A stretch of DNA of 32,000 nt from Caldimicrobium thiodismutans. Its GTDB lineage: Bacteria; Desulfobacterota; Thermodesulfobacteria; Thermodesulfobacteriales; Thermodesulfobacteriaceae. The position numbers and the translations under genes are program-made. The stretch is from assembly GCF_001548275.1 (NCBI RefSeq), contig NZ_AP014945.1, positions 1,200,001 to 1,232,000 of the forward strand, given 5' to 3'. Shown here in pieces: positions 1,385-10,067 of the stretch; the first letter of the stretch is position 1, and each line of letters starts with the position of its first letter. The notes beneath the pieces are model-generated. The model was not told the origin of the DNA. It did not search any database and worked only from the letters and a program-made list of their open reading frames with translations.

Positions 1385-2006
1385 TATTTTACCTTATGGT
1401 GTTAATTTTGAATAGTCAGACTTATTTACTTTCTAAATTGTCACATTTCTGGTAGTCTCTTCCTCTTTACTATCTCTTTAAAGCATAGGAGACTTTGGAC
1501 TTAAGCAAAATAAGGCAATCATCCAAGCCTTACGCTACTCATTGAAAGTATCTTAAATTTTCTTTTGCAAAAAGAGTTAAAATTAAAACCATTGTGAAAA
1601 AACTAAATATTCCCATCACTAAAGATACTCTTCAGCTATTTATTGCAACAGGAATTAATTCTAAATATTTAAAATACTCAAGAAATATATCATCTCTGCA
1701 GATCAATAAAAGAGGCTCCAACTGCTAAGGAAGGAAAAAGGGCTCTAACCTTTTAGATTTGTAAAATTATTCAGCTAAGACAATGACGCTAAGTGAGCCC
1801 TATAATGTTATTTTTTTCACAAAATATTTACATCTTATAATTTTTGGGTATTCTACTTGAACATCGTTTATATTAGGACATCCTTAAAGATGGGAAGGAT
1901 AGTAGAAAATACATTATTAGAAAAACAATTGAAATTTCTTATTCTTTATATATATTGATTATTATTTATTGGATAAAATAAAATTGTATTAAAAAATATG
2001 TAAATT

Positions 2007-3145
2007 ATGCCTAAGATTTTTTTTATATAAAATCACATTTTAGAGAAAGGCAATGGGATACTATAAAAGCTGTTAAAACTTATTTAAATGAAAATTATTC
2101 AGTAATAATACCATCTGATGAGAAAAAACAAAGTTCTGTTAATGTTTTTAAATTTCATACTTCATATAAGGGAAGAATAAAATCTTTAATTGTATCAAAA
2201 TTGCCATTAATTAATTTTCGCTTACTACCTAAAAAAGAAAGTAATGAAGCAGATTTTATTTATACTTGGGGGTATATACCAATTTTGACTAAAAAAAATT
2301 TTATAATAGAGTTTGACAACCCTTATGTTGTGACCTTTTATAATAAGAAAGCATTTGGAATTTATAAAAGTCTGTTTAAAAAATTTTTTAATAAAGCTTA
2401 TAAATTAACATTTATGTCGCAAACATCAATGGAACATTTTTTGTATGAAATAGGAGAGCAATACAGACATAAATGTTTTATTGTTTATCCATTTGTAGAA
2501 AGAAACTATCTAAAAAAGAAAAAAGATATAAATAAAAAGACAATTAATTTTACTTTTGCCGGATTTGATTTCCGATTAAATGGTGGTCCAGAATTATTAA
2601 AAGCTTTTAGCTCTATTAAAAATAAAAATTTAAAATTATTTATTTTTTCGCAAGTGCCAAAGGAGATTAGAAAAGAAGTAAATGACGATAGAATAATAAT
2701 AAATACACCGATTAACCGCCAAGACCTTATTAATCATTTATTGACTACAACCGACATTTTAATTTTACCAACATTTTATGAATCTTTTCCGATCGTAATT
2801 TTAGAAGCATTGTCCTCGGGGTGCGGAATAATTATTACTAATGTCTATGCCACACATGAAATGGTTGAAAGTAATAAAAATGGAATTTTGCTAAGTCATC
2901 CCTTTTTAAAACCTGATAATTATAATGGCTTTGAATTTGTTAATAATACAGTATACAGAATTAATGAATTTACTAAAAATTTTTTAGAGAATAAATTTTA
3001 TGATTCTTTTAGCTTAGAAATAGCTAAAGCCATAGAAATAGGTGCGGAGGAATACAAAAATTGGCAACAAGGAAGTATTGAATTATATGAAAATAAATTT
3101 AGTAAAGAAATTTGGTTAGAAAATTTTAAAAAGATATTTTCATAA
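2007..3145 (+). pseudogene. GT4 (glycosyl transferases group 1) gene interrupted by a frameshift in a T8 tract; possibly phase-variable
   Basis: The ATG at 2007 reads MPKIFFI then a stop at 2028. The long ORF is open from 2015 in another frame, and its only start is a TTG at 2201. One extra T in the T8 run (2017-2024) would give a continuous ~379-codon gene: MPKIFFYIKSHFRERQWDTIKAV...ESFPIVILEALSSGCGIIITNVYATHEMVESNKNGILL (GT4 E-x7-E region). Confidence 0.65.
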
Positions 3146-3148
3146 AAA

Positions 3149-3838
3149 ATGAAAAAAGACAACTTATATGAAAATTTTTCTAAACTTCAACCTTCGGTGG
3201 AAGCTTATTATTGTCTCGATAAATTTTTGATACCAAAATTAGAAGCTGGTTCAAAAATTTTAGAGATAGGGGTTGGTAATGGTGAAATATCTAATTGGTT
3301 GATAGAAAAATATGAGGTATATTGTCTATATATTTCAGAAGAATGTTTAGATAAATTAAATAACAAAATTAAAGCTAAATTTAAATTAGACCTAGAAAAA
3401 GAGAAAATACCGGTTGAAGATAATTTTTTTGATGCGGTAATATGTTTTGCGGTTTTAGAGCATTTAAAAAACTTTAACGAAGCACTTATTGAAATAAAAA
3501 GGGTTTTAAAAAATGAAGGACTGCTTTTTGCCTCCACTCCTAATATAAGTTGGTTACCATTTAGATTAAAATTTTTATTTGGTATGTGCCCTGAAGATTT
3601 TCATACAGCGGACCATGTGAATTTTTGGAACTTAAAAAGATTTAAAAAAATATTTATGGATAATGGTTTTAAAGTGGTTCCTCAATTTACCTCTCTTGGT
3701 TTATTAAATATATTTTTCCCTTTAATTAAAAAATATAGAACTCGTTATTTAGAAATATATGATAAATATATATTTATAGCTACTAACTTTAAAAGCGCTT
3801 TATTAGGTTATAATCAAATAATTATTGCTAAAAAATGA
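3149..3838 (+). CDS. Class I SAM-dependent methyltransferase (Methyltransf_11-like)
   Basis: Supplied ORF with ILEIGVGNGEISNWL (motif I), DAVICFAVLEHLKN and LKNEGLLFASTPN. Its stop TGA (3836-3838) lies inside the ATGA that was the original junction with the next gene. Confidence 0.8.
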   Translation: MKKDNLYENFSKLQPSVEAYYCLDKFLIPKLEAGSKILEIGVGNGEISNWLIEKYEVYCLYISEECLDKLNNKIKAKFKLDLEKEKIPVEDNFFDAVICFAVLEHLKNFNEALIEIKRVLKNEGLLFASTPNISWLPFRLKFLFGMCPEDFHTADHVNFWNLKRFKKIFMDNGFKVVPQFTSLGLLNIFFPLIKKYRTRYLEIYDKYIFIATNFKSALLGYNQIIIAKK

Positions 3839-3933
3839 AAATTTTGGTAGTATTATAAATTTTGTGTATAGATTGGGGAGGTTTAAATTTGAGTCAGTAA
3901 CCTGGGTTGAATTTAAAAAAATTTGGTAAAATC

Positions 3934-3969
3934 CCCTCCTAGCCTCTACCCAAAAACTAACTAGGAGGG
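3934..3969 (+). promoter_or_regulatory. Hairpin that can sequester the transposase Shine-Dalgarno sequence
   Basis: CCCTCCTAG (3934-3942) is perfectly complementary to CTAGGAGGG (3961-3969), with an 18-nt loop between them. The 3' arm contains the AGGAGGG located 5 nt upstream of the transposase ATG at 3975. Confidence 0.5.
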
Positions 3970-3974
3970 CGAAA

Positions 3975-5228
3975 ATGAAGGATCCGCTCTATGAGAACCT
4001 TAAAATTATTATACAACATCCTGAGAAAAAGAAAATACTTGAAAACCTCTTATTTAAGGAAATTAAAAATATGATTAAAAACCTTCTTGAAACTTTGATT
4101 TTGGAAGAAAGAAGAATTTTTTGTGAAGAAATGGATGATGTGGGGAATGGATATTTCTTACGGAGTTTAAAAACACCTTTTGGAGAGATAAAAAATCTTA
4201 GGGTGGCAAGAACAAGGAAGAAAAATTTTAAGACCGCTATTTTTGAGCCTTATTCAAGAGAATTCTTATATTTAGATGAGCTGATTTATTACATGTATGC
4301 TGGTGGGTGTTCTACGAGAGATGTTGCTAACACCTTAGAAAAAATTTACGGGGTTAAATATTCTCCCACTTCTATATCTCGTATTACATCAGTTGTGACT
4401 AAAAAGATAGAGGAATTTAAAAATGCTCCTATAACAAAGTGGTATCCTGTATTATATGTTGATGGGACTTATTTAAAAGTCAGGCGTGGAGGTGTGACAG
4501 AGAATGAAGTAGTTTATTTTGTTGCTGGATTAAGTGAGGATGGACATAAGGAGATTTTAGGATATTGGATACCTGGAGGAAGTGGAGAGAGTGCACTTAA
4601 TTGGAAAGAGATATTTAAAGAACTTTATAAAAGAGGACTAAAAGAACCCCTTTTAGTGGTAGGAGATAACCTTCCTGGGCTTGAAGAAGCTGTAAAACTT
4701 ATCTATCCTCTTGCAGATTTTCAGAGCTGTGTGTTGCATAAGATCCGAAATACTTTGAATAGAGTAAGGAAACGAGAGAGAGCTGCAGTTGCAGAAGATT
4801 TGAAGGAGATATATGAAAGGCACGATGAGAGAGAGTGGAAGCTTGGATTTGAGAGATTTAAGAGGAAATGGGAAAGAATTTATCCTGATATAATAAGGTC
4901 ATGGGAGAGGGATTTGGACAAACTTATGGTTTATTTGAAGTATCCTTATCCTTTGAGGAGATTTATATATACCACGAATGCCCTTGAGAGATTTATTAAG
5001 GAAGTGAAGAGGAGAGTAAAGGTTATAGAAGTATTTCCGAGTGAGGGTTCAGTTGATAAGATTGTTTATTTAGTAGTTGAGGAGATGAATGAGAAGTATA
5101 GGAGTAGGAGACTAAAAAATTTTGAGAGGATAATAGAGGAGCTAAGGGGGGAAAGGAGGGCAAGATATGGGAGTGGAGAGATTAAAATTATTACAAATGA
5201 AAAAGAATTTTATACACAAAAAAGTTGA
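3975..5228 (+). CDS. IS256-family (Mutator-type DDE) transposase
   Basis: Supplied 417-aa ORF. Acidic-triad contexts are LYVDGTYLKV, LVVGDNLPGLEEA and the family signature YTTNALERFIKEVKRRVKV. The SD AGGAGGG sits upstream. Confidence 0.92.
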   Translation: MKDPLYENLKIIIQHPEKKKILENLLFKEIKNMIKNLLETLILEERRIFCEEMDDVGNGYFLRSLKTPFGEIKNLRVARTRKKNFKTAIFEPYSREFLYLDELIYYMYAGGCSTRDVANTLEKIYGVKYSPTSISRITSVVTKKIEEFKNAPITKWYPVLYVDGTYLKVRRGGVTENEVVYFVAGLSEDGHKEILGYWIPGGSGESALNWKEIFKELYKRGLKEPLLVVGDNLPGLEEAVKLIYPLADFQSCVLHKIRNTLNRVRKRERAAVAEDLKEIYERHDEREWKLGFERFKRKWERIYPDIIRSWERDLDKLMVYLKYPYPLRRFIYTTNALERFIKEVKRRVKVIEVFPSEGSVDKIVYLVVEEMNEKYRSRRLKNFERIIEELRGERRARYGSGEIKIITNEKEFYTQKS

Positions 5229-5232
5229 CACT

Positions 5233-6987
5233 ATGAAAATTTTAGGCATACAATTAGGTCATAATTCAACTGTAGCTATTTTACAAGACGGGAAGATTAC
5301 TCATGCAGTCAGCCAAGAGAAATTTGATAATAAAAAAATTTCAAGTAATTTTCCCAAGGAGGCAATTGAATGGTTTTTCAATGAAAGCGGTATAACTCCT
5401 GAAGAAATAAACTATATTGCTATTTGTGGTAAGTTTATTTTTCCTAATCAGCTATACATTGATAACAATACTACATCAGTAAGTTCTTTTAATAAAAAAA
5501 ATTATAAAGATTATGTCAAATATTTGATGGCTACTACTTTTCCTAATTTATACTGGAAATACTTATTCTTAAAAAATAATCTTATCAATAAGAAAACAAA
5601 ACAAAGCCTATTAGAACAATTATCAAAAGTTTTAAATTTAAAAATTGAATCTATTGAAAATAGAATAATTTTTGTTAGACACCATACATGCCATGCCTAT
5701 TCTGCATATTATAGTTGTTTAGACCGTAAAAAACCGGCTTTAATTTTAACCCTCGATGGTAGTGGTGATTATTCATGCTCCACTGTAAGTATATATAATG
5801 AAAAAAATAAGAAAATAGAAAGAATAGCATCTACCCCATGGCTATACTCTCCTGGTTATGTTTATTCAGAAATTACAAGATTTTTAGGAATGAAACCACT
5901 TGAACATGAATACAAAGTTATGGGTTTATCACCTTATTCTAAATATGAAATTTCACGAGAGATTTGCGATAAAATTTTTAAACCCTTGCTTTGGATAGAT
6001 AAAGACGGTTTAACTTTTAAATCTTCTATACCAACAAATCGTTTAATGTATTACTTTAAAGATAAATTATTAGGAATGCGATTTGATAATATTGCTGGAG
6101 GATTACAATTATGGTTAGAAGAATTAGTTATTCAATGGATTAAAAATGCTATTAAAATTACAGGAATTAAAAATATATATTTAGGTGGTGGAGTTTTTAT
6201 GAACGTAAAACTAAATAAAAAAATAATGGAGATGGAAGAGATTGAAGGTTGTTATTTTATGCCATCTTGTGGAGATGAAAGTAATCCCTTTGGCGCTTGT
6301 TTTTATGTTTATAAAACAAAAACAGATAACGACCCTGAACCATTAAAAGATTTATATTTAGGTCCTGAATATTCAGATGAAGAAATTAAACTCTATTTTG
6401 ATAAAAACAAACTACACCAAAAATATAATATTGAATACTATGATGATATAGAAAAAAAAGTAGCAACATTATTGTCAGAATTCAAAATAGTAGCAAGATT
6501 TAAAGGAAGAGCTGAATGGGGAGCAAGAGCACTTGGTAATAGATCAATACTGGCAAATCCTAGTGATCTTAAAAGCTTTTATGAAGTCAATGATACTATT
6601 AAACAAAGAGATTTTTGGATGCCATTTGCCCCCTCAATTTTAGATGAAGACGAAAATAAATATATTATAAATCCTAAAAAAATAAAAGCACCTTATATGA
6701 TTGTTGCCTTTGACTCAACAGAATTGGCACAACAACATCTAAAAGCTGCGATGCACCAAGCTGATAAAACATTAAGACCTCAAATAGTATATAGATCGCA
6801 AAATCCAGACTACTGGCGGCTTATAAAATATTTTAAAGAAATTACGGGAATTGGCGGGGTCTTAAATACGTCGTTAAATTTACATGGATATCCATTAGTG
6901 GCAACTTTAGATCAATTATTATTTACGCTTGAAAATAGTAAATTAAAATACGCAGCCGTTGGTAATTATTTAATATCCAAGAAATAA
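5233..6987 (+). CDS. Carbamoyltransferase (NodU/CmcH family)
   Basis: MKILGIQLGHNSTVAILQDGKITHAVSQEKF is the canonical family N-terminus, and the length (about 584 aa) fits. The supplied ORF start at 5167 is read-through of the IS end and is rejected. Confidence 0.85.
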   Translation: MKILGIQLGHNSTVAILQDGKITHAVSQEKFDNKKISSNFPKEAIEWFFNESGITPEEINYIAICGKFIFPNQLYIDNNTTSVSSFNKKNYKDYVKYLMATTFPNLYWKYLFLKNNLINKKTKQSLLEQLSKVLNLKIESIENRIIFVRHHTCHAYSAYYSCLDRKKPALILTLDGSGDYSCSTVSIYNEKNKKIERIASTPWLYSPGYVYSEITRFLGMKPLEHEYKVMGLSPYSKYEISREICDKIFKPLLWIDKDGLTFKSSIPTNRLMYYFKDKLLGMRFDNIAGGLQLWLEELVIQWIKNAIKITGIKNIYLGGGVFMNVKLNKKIMEMEEIEGCYFMPSCGDESNPFGACFYVYKTKTDNDPEPLKDLYLGPEYSDEEIKLYFDKNKLHQKYNIEYYDDIEKKVATLLSEFKIVARFKGRAEWGARALGNRSILANPSDLKSFYEVNDTIKQRDFWMPFAPSILDEDENKYIINPKKIKAPYMIVAFDSTELAQQHLKAAMHQADKTLRPQIVYRSQNPDYWRLIKYFKEITGIGGVLNTSLNLHGYPLVATLDQLLFTLENSKLKYAAVGNYLISKK

Positions 6988-6988
6988 A

Positions 6989-8727
6989 ATGTGCGGCATT
7001 TTTCTTTTATCTTCTAAAAAACCATTGAGTGATATTGAAATATCAAAGCTTAAATTAATAACCACAAAATTGAGACACCGTGGACCAGACGCAGAAGGCT
7101 TCTTTTTGTCTGAAGACAGACAAGTTTTTATATCTCATTATCGATTAGCTATTATTGACCTAGATGAAAGATCAAATCAGCCAATGATTAAAGAAAATCT
7201 GGTTATAACTTTTAATGGCGAAATTTATAATTTTAAAAAAATTAAACAGGAACTAACTAAAAGGGGTAGTAAATTTTTTACTGAATCTGATACGGAAGTA
7301 ATCTTAGAAGCTTATAAACATTTCGGTAAAGATTGCCTTGATTTATTTACGGGGATGTTTGCTTTTTGTATTTATAATAAAAATTCAAAAGAAATATTTT
7401 GTGCTAGAGATAGAATAGGCGAAAAACCGCTTATTTACTACATTGATGACCAAAAATTGATAATTGCTTCAGAAATACCGGTTATTTTAAGAACTCTTAG
7501 AGAAATTTATAATAGTCAGCCAGATATTGATAATGATATTTTAAGTTTATATTATTTAGGAACATATCGACATATACCTGAGCCTTATTCTATTTGGAAA
7601 GGGATTAAAAAATTAGAGCCCGCTAAATATCTATTAATTAAAGACAATAAAATTCAAGAAAATAATTTTTATTATCAGCCGAAAATTAGCAAAGAATATT
7701 TAAATTATCCAGAATCTAAAATCTGTAAAATGGTTAAACAAAGTTTAATAGAAGCAGTCGAATTAACGACAGTATCAGATGTTCCTTTAGCAGTTTTATT
7801 ATCTGGCGGTGTTGATTCTTCTATTATTAGTTTTATTTTAAAAAAAATTCTAAACAAAGATATAATAGCTTTTACTTATGGTCGAGATGAAAACGACGAA
7901 GAAATTCAAAGAGCAAGGTTGGTCGCCAACAAATTGAAAATTCCATTAAAAATATTTTATTTTAAAGAAGGTGATGTTTTGAAAAGTTTAAGAGATATAA
8001 TATCAATTTATGGCGAACCTCTATGCCTATTTCAATTTGCTTATTCAGATATACTTTATAAAAACATCAGAAATGAAGGCATAAAGGTCGTTATAACAGG
8101 TAATGGCGGAGATGAAATTTTTATGGTTATACCTCGCATCCTAAAACTTTATTATTTTCGTATATGATGAAAATTCTTAATTTTCTAAATTTATTAGATA
8201 ATAGAAAATTAAAAATTTTGAAATATAAATTTATGAGTTTTAAAAATAAATACCCATATGATAAGAAATTAGTCAATTCTATTTTTGACGAATTTGAACC
8301 TCTTTTATCAAATTTCAATAAAAGATTATTAATTGACTTTTCGAATTTTTGGGCTTTAATTAGCGAAAATGCTCATAGCATCACAATGGTCGCAGATATT
8401 GCAGGAATGAAAAACTCTGTAGAAGTAAGATCTCCGTTCTTAAATCATAACTTAGTTGAGTTAGCTTTCTCTATTCATCCTAAATTTAAAATTAAAAAAC
8501 TTTTTGATAAGACGGGTAAATATAATAAATGGATTTTAAAAAAAGCTTTTGAAGATTCCGAAATTAATGATATTCTATTTCTTAAAAAAGTAGGCTTTGG
8601 ATTTTATATCAAGTATGATAAAAACTTTGCTACAGAAAAAAATTTTCGTTTATGGAGCCTTAAAACATTTTCTGATATATTTGAAATTGATCTAAATAAG
8701 AAATTTGCTAATAATATCCTAAAATGA
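6989..8727 (+). pseudogene. asnB: Asparagine synthase (glutamine-hydrolysing, AsnB-like) split by a frameshift at a T5 run
   Basis: ORF1 (6989-8167) starts MCGIF (Cys2 Ntn amidotransferase) and has the PP-loop LLSGGVDSS. The expected G-x-DE-x-F-x-GY motif reads GNGGDEIF, then leaves frame at T5 (8118-8122). One extra T gives ...DEIFYGYTSHPKTLLFSYMMKILNF..., joining ORF2 (8164-8727). Confidence 0.8.
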
Positions 8728-8745
8728 TTTGTTTTTGTTATTAAA

Positions 8746-9050
8746 CATAGTGTCAATAATTTTATGTATAAAAATTTTTACTTTTATAAAAATTTTATTT
8801 TCCTTCTTTCCATGTCTTGCATTCCTGTACTCCCTTATCTCTTCTATTATCATCTCAAAATTTTTTAGTCTCTTACTTATATACTTCTCTCTCCTTAACT
8901 ACTAAATAAACAACTCTGTCAATCGAGACCTAACATGCAAAAACTTTCATAATCTTTACACTCCTCTTTAAATTCTTTATTAAATCGCTCAACTACTTTC
9001 TCTGTAAATATAAAACTCCCGCAAATATGATGACTTTCATGCTAAGTCTA
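8746..9050 (-). mobile_element. Decayed 3' fragment of a second, diverged IS256-family element (right end plus about the last 95 transposase codons)
   Basis: The reverse complement ends ...ATTGACACTATG, against ...GTTGACACTATG in the intact copy. It aligns back through remnants of TTNALERF-KE-KRR (FIFTEKVVERFNKEFK...) with stops and frameshifts. Its orientation is opposite to the intact IS. The upper boundary is approximate. Confidence 0.7.
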
Positions 9051-9068
9051 TGAATAATCAATCTATTT

Positions 9069-10067
9069 TTATGAGAATTCATTTTTGAAACCTCGCTTGA
9101 AAGTATAAAAAAGACCCTTGTCTTGAGGCACAAAAAACCAATAAGCCACCGCAGGCAAGAAAAAGAAAACATCCCTTGCCTTGCGAAGTAAAGATAAAAA
9201 GTAAAGTTTTTTATCTGGATTTACCTTTTTTAAATCTTCAACTCCTAAACTTGCAAGTTTTTCATCCTTTACTACGGACTTTTTAAGAGTCTTTTTAAGC
9301 CTAAGCCCTATACCACCTAATAATACACCCTCAAGATATGCAGGTATAGTCTTCAATTCATGTTTTACTCTTATAACCTTTATTGATGAAAATCCTGTAA
9401 GTTCCAAAGCCTGATAAAGTGCCTTTTTATTAAACCACAAAAAGTGATGAGGAGGAAAGTCTGAGTTTTCTCTTTCCCATAGTATTAACCTTTCTCTATT
9501 TGGCACGTCTCCTGCAATGAACCCACCGGGTTTTAAAAGCCTTTTTACATTTTCCAAAAACTCCTTTGGCTTGTCCTGATGCTCAAGCACCGCGAAAAAG
9601 GTTATTACATCAAATTTTAGCCCTTCCTTTTCGGCAAAATTTACAAATTCCTCTAAACTCATAGCATAGACATTTTTAAGTCCTCTTTTTTCTCTACAAA
9701 CTTCAACACTTTTCCTATCAAAGTCTATCCCCCAGACTTCAAAGCCCATTTCTTGCGCTCTCTTCAAAAACCTTCCATCTCCACAGCCTACATCAAGTAG
9801 CCTCCCAGATTTTAAAGGAATGTGTTTGAAAAAAGCTTTATAATCTTCTCCCAAACTCTCCCCTATTCCTAAGTGAAATATTGTATAAGCCTCATCCCCT
9901 TCCTCCTCATAAAACTCTTTTTCAATCTTTAAAGGCTCCCACCACTCAAGGTCACACCCTTCACAATGATAAAGCTTATACTCCTTTTTGTTCCAATCTG
10001 AAACATAAGTTTTTTTAAAAGCCCCGTTAGAAGCTTCCTTTCCACATACTGGACATCTTAAAATCAT
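9069..10067 (-). CDS. Class I SAM-dependent methyltransferase with N-terminal Zn-ribbon (paralog 2)
   Basis: Supplied ORF with CPVC...CEGC, LLDVGCGDGRF and DVITFFAVLEHQ. A strong SD GGAGGAGGG lies 7 nt upstream of the ATG at 10067. The C-terminal ~120 aa differ from paralog 1. Confidence 0.88.
   Translation of the reverse strand: MILRCPVCGKEASNGAFKKTYVSDWNKKEYKLYHCEGCDLEWWEPLKIEKEFYEEEGDEAYTIFHLGIGESLGEDYKAFFKHIPLKSGRLLDVGCGDGRFLKRAQEMGFEVWGIDFDRKSVEVCREKRGLKNVYAMSLEEFVNFAEKEGLKFDVITFFAVLEHQDKPKEFLENVKRLLKPGGFIAGDVPNRERLILWERENSDFPPHHFLWFNKKALYQALELTGFSSIKVIRVKHELKTIPAYLEGVLLGGIGLRLKKTLKKSVVKDEKLASLGVEDLKKVNPDKKLYFLSLLRKARDVFFFLPAVAYWFFVPQDKGLFYTFKRGFKNEFS
9525..10001. repeat. Direct repeat copy B (477 nt) inside methyltransferase paralog 2
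   Basis: See copy A (791-1267). It has the same orientation, and copy starts are 8734 bp apart. Confidence 0.9.

Follow-up and report, generated by a model that had tools for sequence, protein, structure and literature searches.

How can an insertion sequence land between two genes that share their stop and start codons, and leave both encoded proteins unchanged? The question is raised by a glycan-modification operon of Caldimicrobium thiodismutans, with the gene order GT4, methyltransferase (MT), carbamoyltransferase (CT) and AsnB-like, that lies in the 32,000-nt stretch of DNA analysed here (the window; contig NZ_AP014945.1, positions 1,200,001 to 1,232,000 of the forward strand). The whole is, with high confidence, best explained by a 1390-bp IS256-family insertion that split the operon after divergence from a relative of about 98% identity. 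The features at the junction are as follows.

3149–3838, + strand: class I SAM methyltransferase (MT) gene, 229 aa (Pfam Methyltransf_23/11), with a 229-aa orthologue at 5315–6004 of contig L193.
3835–3838, + strand: left remnant of an ATGA stop/start overlap, which reads caaaaATGAAAATTTTAGGC in the empty site of L193/L194.
3838–3845, no strand: target-site duplication, left copy AAAATTTT.
3846–5235, + strand: 1390-bp insertion sequence of the IS256 family, oriented with the operon; a 98%-identical second copy and end fragments exist, and it is absent from L193/L194.
3846–3870, + strand: left terminal inverted repeat, of which 17 of 25 positions agree with the right end when the two are aligned in register; six left ends.
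3975–5228, + strand: intact transposase gene, 417 aa, ending in TGA at 5226–5228.
5211–5235, + strand: right terminal inverted repeat, ending ...TTGACACTATG and containing the transposase TGA.
5233–5235, + strand: element-borne terminal ATG, now the CT start codon.
5233–6987, + strand: intact NodU/CmcH-type carbamoyltransferase (CT) gene, 584 aa (Pfam Carbam_trans_N and Carbam_trans_C).
5236–5243, no strand: target-site duplication, right copy AAAATTTT, making up CT codons 2–4.

The ends of the element, GGTAGT and ...TTGACACTATG, were set by the second full copy and six end fragments, all from this genome, and by relatives whose transposases are as little as 50% identical. All four right ends in the genome terminate at ...TTGACACTATG and then run into unrelated flanks, and the termini are thus defined without the 3846–5235 site; left ends start (G/A)GTA(G/A)TATTA in six cases out of six. 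Differing termini in other copies had been named in the original prediction as grounds for abandoning it, but the copies share their termini, including the remnant at 8746, which had been expected to end in the same way. Given these independently set ends, the flanking repeat AAAATTTT is perfect and exactly 8 bp long, lies at the coordinates first proposed, and has a chance probability of about 2e-5 at the local base composition. The identity shared by the junctions really extends to 11 bp (ATGAAAATTTT) because the three bases before the target, ATG, happened to equal the last three of the element. A target origin for the ATG at 5233, with an element ending ...GACACT and an 11-bp duplication, would account for these 11 identical bases but is scarcely credible and was rejected, since four right ends with four different flanks all run through the ATG, relatives at 50–80% transposase identity also extend through it to the same terminal CACTATG, the left and right ends fall into register only with the ATG inside the element, and IS256-family duplications measure 8–9 bp, as does that of the metagenomic L206 copy (8 bp, GAGGCAAA). 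The ATG is assigned to the element from the right ends, the relatives and the empty-site comparison described below, in agreement with the proposal that CT had gained a new start codon from the end of the insertion sequence.

The transposase at 3975–5228 is the sole intact copy in the genome. It matches the Pfam transposase profile PF00872 (E 4.3e-90, profile positions 23–377 of 379), scores 337.8 bits with NCBIfam NF033543 (cutoff 150), and aligns across residues 18–390 with the ISCth4 structure 6xg8 (E 8e-62). In this alignment residues D163, D231 and E338, together with C252 and H255, correspond to D175, D241, E348, C262 and H265 of ISCth4 TnpA. Size and layout are those of the IS256 family (1390 bp, one 417-aa ORF, imperfect terminal repeats), as is the duplication, with AAAATTTT on either side of the element and in a single copy in L193/L194. 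An outward −35 hexamer, TTGACA, occupies bp 6–11 from the right end, and −10-like hexamers TATTAT and TATAAA lie within bp 6–14 of the left end; the arrangement fits a circle-junction promoter by sequence, and the two ends may hold half-promoters as in copy-out/paste-in IS256 elements. With an intact transposase and its DDE and CxxH residues in place, the element looks mobile.

IS256 of Staphylococcus and Enterococcus, the family prototype, likewise encodes a Mutator-type DDE transposase in a single ORF of an element of about 1.3–1.4 kb, has imperfect terminal repeats and an 8-bp target duplication, and inserts in polysaccharide operons as the window element does, although the two are only distantly related in sequence. 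The nearest named relatives of the window element, at 44–48% identity, carry the label 'IS654 family'. ISCth4 of Clostridium thermocellum (PDB 6xg8, 6xgw and 6xgx; PMC7780238) corresponds to it in the residues above, in the −35 at bp 6–11 of the right end and in a −10-like box in the left end, whereas the terminal sequences differ and the window element is known from sequence alone. As Maki & Murakami 1997 is cited in PMC7780238, the outward −35 at the right end of IS256 can form hybrid promoters with −10 boxes of the target. There the effect is on the promoter, whereas here the element end supplies a start codon. As a transposition event the insertion is an ordinary, routine one for the IS256 family, tidy and opening no new question.

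The empty site was located by a large protein search followed by contig look-up. Two contigs with approximately 98% nucleotide identity in the flanks (97.6–98.5% to the window), the MAG contig JAEDZT010001996.1 and a Logan contig (L193/L194), carry the exact empty site ...AAAATGAAAATTTTAGGC... and AAAATTTT only once. They read ...CAAAAATGAAAATTTTAGGC..., in which the MT TGA and the CT ATG overlap as ATGA and the element is lacking; MT ends at 6004 and CT begins at 6001. Removal of the insertion sequence and one repeat had been predicted to restore just this overlap, and the relatives read exactly so. The MT–CT overlap is also kept in five of five metagenome contigs at 58–69% protein identity, along with the order GT4-MT-CT-AsnB, and the prediction therefore also withstood the comparison on which it had been said to fail were the junction missing from related genomes. 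Because the ATGA is uninterrupted in all five distant relatives, the empty site is the ancestral state. The idea that CT and asnB arrived in a composite transposon, with the 8746 remnant as its other member, was rejected, as the four genes are syntenic and element-free in seven other contigs. Elsewhere, forty species-representative genomes of relatives lacked any close match to the junction or to CT (best match 50%, in another genus), an exact-protein look-up with the window's own MT and CT returned no match, and the literature, searched by accession number for the empty-site contigs, gave no match. Scans of genome and metagenome contigs reached no more than 69% full-length identity, in relatives useful for synteny and lacking the exact empty site, and 74% identity over one segment of an internally deleted CT in L122/L123.

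From this comparison the anatomy of the junction can be reconstructed. The 8-bp target AAAATTTT started at the final base of the ATGA overlap, and after duplication the left copy finishes the MT TGA and the right copy holds CT codons 2–4. MT keeps its native stop, TGA 3836–3838, as predicted, because the left copy provides the final A. The former CT start, ATG 3835–3837, is now orphaned, and its role has passed to the three final bases of the element, a conserved part of the right end. Both proteins are unchanged because this final ATG, 4 nt past the transposase stop as originally described, stands in for the lost start codon: CT homologues align from residue 1, MKILG, and CT is 99% identical to protein P0121 of the empty-site relative. 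The MT stop and the CT start now lie 1.4 kb apart.

The view that the insertion is recent is supported by its absence from a lineage only about 1.5–2.4% diverged, by the perfect duplication and by the intact transposase. An old insertion, with the relative's empty site arising by precise excision through the 8-bp repeats, is very unlikely. In staphylococci IS256 is known to excise precisely at its duplication, and the 1.6% divergence between the 3846–5235 copy and the second full copy in the genome indicates that the former did not arise freshly from the latter. However, all five distant relatives have the uninterrupted ATGA, a single gain in the window lineage is more parsimonious than a gain followed by an exact loss, and the perfect duplication and intact transposase stand against the imperfect 6/8 duplication and frameshift of the other copy.

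A second alternative is that the insertion is a reversible switch that lowers CT and AsnB and whose exact excision restores the ATGA-coupled operon. IS256 acts as such a switch in the staphylococcal ica operon, and the perfect duplication, the intact transposase, the location in a surface-glycan cassette and the existence of a natural empty allele would all suit this role. Against it, the occupied site is known from one genome and the empty allele from two contigs of a single close relative, and a divergence of about 2% in the flanks marks the empty allele as a separate lineage rather than a revertant. A switch is therefore considered improbable, and a recent insertion into an ancestral ATGA junction remains the preferred account.

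What the insertion does to CT expression is read from three further features.

3934–3969, + strand: hairpin CCCTCCTAG / CTAGGAGGG, predicted in both the minimum-energy and centroid folds to sequester the transposase Shine-Dalgarno.
5154–5169, + strand: strong Shine-Dalgarno GGAGGG with an ATG at 5167, within the transposase 3' end and in the CT frame (ORF 5167–6987, 606 aa).
5225–5254, + strand: hybrid promoter-like site, a consensus match only, of TTGACA (element), 18 nt and TACAAT (CT codons 6–8).

The original translational coupling had been expected to be broken, and this follows from the junction anatomy; we infer that the native termination–reinitiation coupling of CT to MT has been lost. 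CT would now need RNA that reads through the element or starts inside it, and no terminator-like site was found within the element on the + strand. The further suggestion, that CT might now depend on transposase translation or on promoters of the element, is qualified by the hairpin, by the position of the promoter-like site and by the stronger signal at 5167. On read-through RNA the hairpin would block transposase translation, in which case reinitiation at 5233 would occur mainly on element-promoted RNA. A conserved TAAAAT lies directly upstream of this hairpin, and relatives show compensatory changes in it (TAG/CTA to TGG/CCA; ACCTCCTGGTG pairs with CACCAGGAGGT), the fold z-scores of both folded regions not being significant alone. 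The strongest initiation signal into the CT frame would be the Shine-Dalgarno and ATG at 5167, giving a CT with 22 extra N-terminal residues: its pairing with the 16S tail is predicted at −12.4 kcal/mol, compared with −10.7 for the transposase, −1.6 for 5233 and −0.3 to −2.0 for the other cassette genes. This signal is embedded in transposase coding sequence (RRARYG). The outward mini-ORF to which it belongs, opening with the Shine-Dalgarno and ATG 66 nt upstream of the right end and staying open to the last base, is kept in the close clade at 62–80% identity. Because the signal overlaps transposase codons and is missing from relatives at 50% identity, it probably arose as a by-product rather than a device, and the mini-ORF was rejected as a conserved device on the loss of its ATG and its overlap with constrained codons. 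A reading in which most of the remaining CT starts at 5167 and less at 5233, with CT and AsnB expression below the pre-insertion level, is put forward tentatively, with a likelihood a little short of even. The hybrid promoter-like site, with 11 of 12 matches the best within 2000–9200, would begin its RNA downstream of the ATG at 5233.

The state of the cassette itself matters for this reading, and two features downstream of CT bear on it.

6989–8727, + strand: AsnB-like amidotransferase gene, split into ORFs of 392 aa and 187 aa by a 1-nt T-run deletion near 8117.
8746–9019, − strand: diverged (76%) right-end remnant of a related IS256-family element, ending ...TTGACACTATG; homology to the empty-site relative stops here.

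In L193 asnB is intact (579 aa), and relative to the empty-site contig a second 1-nt T-run deletion breaks GT4 near 2016; the run is T8 there and T5 in asnB. These deletions suggest that the cassette may no longer function in this strain, in which case the preservation of the reading frames would be without consequence. Preservation would then be a coincidence within a cassette being inactivated, with CT effectively silent. The rearrangement at the remnant from 8746, the lack of a Shine-Dalgarno at ATG 5233 and a promoter-like site that would start RNA past the start codon all agree with this explanation. However, CT keeps an intact ORF with 99% identity to the protein of the relative, few random insertions in a cassette of approximately 7 kb would leave both frames whole, the element contains no terminator-like site, and the T-run deletions may alternatively be homopolymer assembly errors or phase-variable states. 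An effectively silent CT is the most serious of the alternatives, somewhat doubtful but carrying appreciable weight.

The element has metagenome relatives from hot springs and other sources (P0001–P0013; loci L183–L189 and L205–L209), at 50–80% transposase identity. Their right ends likewise read ...ATACACAA...TTGACACTAT(G), the hairpin sequestering the Shine-Dalgarno is shared, and the transposase stop lies 4 nt before the terminal ATG. In L206–L208 an istB gene is interrupted, and its downstream part likewise opens with the terminal ATG; a stop/start overlap is the site of none of these relatives. The second copy, the fragments and the metagenomic relatives lie in unrelated contexts, one of them inside istB, and show no systematic preference for start codons or ATGA overlaps. 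Judged by titles and abstracts, a literature search on insertion sequences that donate a start codon yielded nothing on point. That the right end of this IS256 subgroup, with its outward −35 and terminal start codon and, in the close clade, the mini-ORF beginning 66 nt upstream, might be kept as a portable expression module beyond transposase binding is highly doubtful; if it were so, insertions at or inside the 5' ends of genes would routinely give expressed genes or fusions.

The occupied and empty alleles, at about 98% identity, form a clean natural pair in which two coupled genes have been moved 1.4 kb apart with their proteins unchanged. This pair could test the importance of ATGA coupling for operon genes that have no Shine-Dalgarno sequences of their own, and could show how the end of an insertion sequence replaces a start codon.

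The locus is a glycan-modification cassette in which the methyltransferase (MT) and carbamoyltransferase (CT) genes lie between an upstream GT4 glycosyltransferase gene and a downstream gene for an AsnB-like amidotransferase. The original prediction placed an IS256 element within an ATGA overlap of MT and CT, and its positions for the MT stop, repeat copies, transposase ORF and ATG were exact when checked against the sequence:

MT ORF with TGA stop at 3836-3838, + strand: class I SAM methyltransferase, 229 aa (Pfam/NCBIfam)
3838-3845 and 5236-5243: target-site repeat AAAATTTT, flanking the element
3846-5235, same orientation as the operon: element of 1390 bp
3975-5228, + strand: transposase ORF, 417 aa, IS256-family (Mutator-type)
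CT frame with ATG at 5233-5235, + strand: NodU/CmcH-type, 584 aa, with Carbam_trans_N and Carbam_trans_C domains

The CT ATG lies four bases past the transposase TGA. This stop codon (5226-5228) itself falls within TTGACA (5225-5230), the outward-facing -35 hexamer of the right end.

The genome of the organism is a single 1.81-Mb contig. Besides the window element it contains another full-length copy at 1659016-1660406 (98% identity), plus two right-end and four left-end fragments. The four right ends all terminate at ...TTGACACTATG, beyond which lie four unrelated flanks, and all six left ends begin (G/A)GTA(G/A)TATTA. When the window copy is delimited in this way, its ends can be aligned in register (17/25 matches), and the same CACTAT(G) terminus occurs in metagenomic relatives with 50-80% transposase identity. 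One of these, L206, has an 8-bp duplication (GAGGCAAA) on either side. Given the shared termini, the in-register ends and the metagenomic relatives, the element was defined as 3846-5235 with ATG as its last bases. The original prediction had hinged on other copies ending alike, as they do, and every right end in the genome runs through the ATG that it had assigned to the last three bases of the element. With the ends fixed independently, the flanking repeat measures exactly 8 bp as claimed, a match with a chance probability of ~2e-5 at this base composition. Identity between the two junctions actually extends to 11 bases (ATGAAAATTTT), and the three bases preceding the target are also ATG. It is through this coincidence that the terminal ATG of the element can replace the native CT start codon.

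The second copy (L002 1501-2891) differs from the window copy at 22 positions, none past position 938. Its transposase is split into 280 aa and 100 aa by a single inserted base close to element position 936, so in this genome only the window copy is intact. The flanking repeat of the second copy matches at only 6/8 positions (ATATAAAA / GAATAAAA). At G000:C1:376346-376675, a left end (~79 bp) and a right end (~190 bp) are separated by 64 bp and share one strand; this ~330-bp, MITE-like derivative has lost the element's interior, and no duplication can be recognised around it.

The transposase matched PF00872 (E 4e-90) and NF033543 (337.8 bits, cutoff 150), and aligned to the solved ISCth4 transposase (6xg8; E 8e-62). 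Residues D163, D231, E338 and C252/H255 sit opposite the published ISCth4 residues D175/D241/E348 and C262/H265, and TTGACA of the right end lies at bp 6-11 counted from the tip, just where the -35 of ISCth4 has been reported (PMC7780238). In the left end, TATTAT/TATAAA occupies bp 6-14, and the two ends, if joined in a circle across a short spacer, would form a promoter. Such a promoter belongs to the known IS256 copy-out/paste-in arrangement, which the element fits by sequence, with the circle a predicted intermediate. The circle aside, the element agrees with the IS256 family on every feature open to testing. There was no sign of start-codon targeting, as the second copy, the fragments and the relatives all lie in unrelated contexts. 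In L206-L208, the element of a 50% identical transposase (P0010) lies inside an IS21-type istB gene with like geometry: transposase stop, 4 nt, then a terminal ATG that heads a 103-aa downstream istB fragment.

The locus was absent from forty species-representative relatives, and exact-protein look-ups gave no match. A CT search of a large protein collection identified P0121, a homologue 99% identical to CT. Two contigs carry its gene: L193, which is JAEDZT010001996.1 at NCBI (assembly GCA_017880035.1), and L194, a Logan contig from run SRR13170868. Both contigs align to the window over the left flank (97.6%, 1907 aligned columns) and right flank (98.5%, 3566 aligned columns), and their junction reads ...attattgctcaaaaATGAAAATTTTAGGCATACAA... 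with no element. In L193, MT (5315-6004) and CT (6001-7755) overlap as ATGA, and the 11 bases at 6001-6011 align to two places in the window, 3835-3845 and 5233-5243. The uninterrupted ATGA junction of these contigs is the empty site reconstructed earlier, with a single base changed (C for A) 5 nt upstream of the ATG. The overlap was also to be expected in related genomes, and all five less closely related metagenome contigs (L103-L105, L122, L123; MT 58-65% and CT 65-69% identical) keep both it and the GT4-MT-CT-AsnB order, so the uninterrupted state is ancestral. Alignments of CT homologues begin at residue 1, with MKILG or a near variant, so 5233 marks the native N-terminus. The orthologous CT of L122 (2546-3583) and L123 (3001-4038) has an internal deletion of residues ~75-309, with intact neighbours.

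Shine-Dalgarno (SD) strength was calculated as duplex energy with the 16S tail. GT4, MT, CT and AsnB have almost no SD (-0.3 to -2.0 kcal/mol) and are spaced by 0-4 nt or overlap; the transposase SD reaches -10.7 kcal/mol. Because the cassette is near SD-less and tightly packed, CT was probably translated by termination-reinitiation from MT, which the insertion would abolish. The element is co-oriented with the operon and contains no terminator-like site on the + strand, making read-through RNA across it plausible. The top promoter-like site in 2000-9200 is a hybrid of TTGACA from the element and TACAAT from CT codons 6-8, 18 nt apart (11/12 matches). Its predicted RNA would begin ~30 nt past the ATG and might be used for asnB, but an intact CT could not be made from it.

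A 9-bp hairpin (3934-3942 / 3961-3969) sequesters the transposase SD in the predicted fold, and is kept with compensatory changes down to 50% transposase identity (L183, L186, L205, L206, L209), always with a conserved TAAAAT just upstream of its 5' arm. This conservation fits protection from read-through translation. In the classical arrangement, only element-promoted RNA that starts inside the 5' arm is translated. Were this to hold here, ribosomes on operon read-through RNA would seldom reach the transposase stop, and reinitiation across the stop-4 nt-ATG would depend on the element's own promoter, which in insertion sequences is usually weak.

The strongest SD in the region (-12.4 kcal/mol) is AAGGAGGG, followed after 7 nt by an ATG at 5167 in the CT frame, which is open through the element end. 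A start here would yield a 606-aa CT with 22 extra N-terminal residues. The pair is present in the 62-80% identity clade, lacks its ATG at 50% identity and overlaps the RRARYG codons of the transposase; we consider it a by-product that is available here by chance. The corresponding mini-ORF (window 5154-5235; L183 1346-1456; L186 1478-1597) overlaps the transposase 3' end, reads out through the terminal ATG and is called by gene finders as a 36-39 aa ORF.

Relative to L193, the window is one T short in a T-run near 2016, breaking GT4 (379 aa in L193), and one T short near 8117, splitting asnB (579 aa in L193). These deletions may be real, with the cassette undergoing decay or phase variation in this strain; otherwise they are homopolymer assembly errors. 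Homology to L193 stops exactly at 8746, the edge of a remnant (8746-9019; 76% identical) left by a related element. L193 carries a different minus-strand gene in its place, so a rearrangement or deletion accompanied this older insertion. Should the cassette be dead, that both ORFs survived would be a coincidence without consequence. Overall, this is an ordinary insertion whose local effect is neat, made by an element of a known kind.
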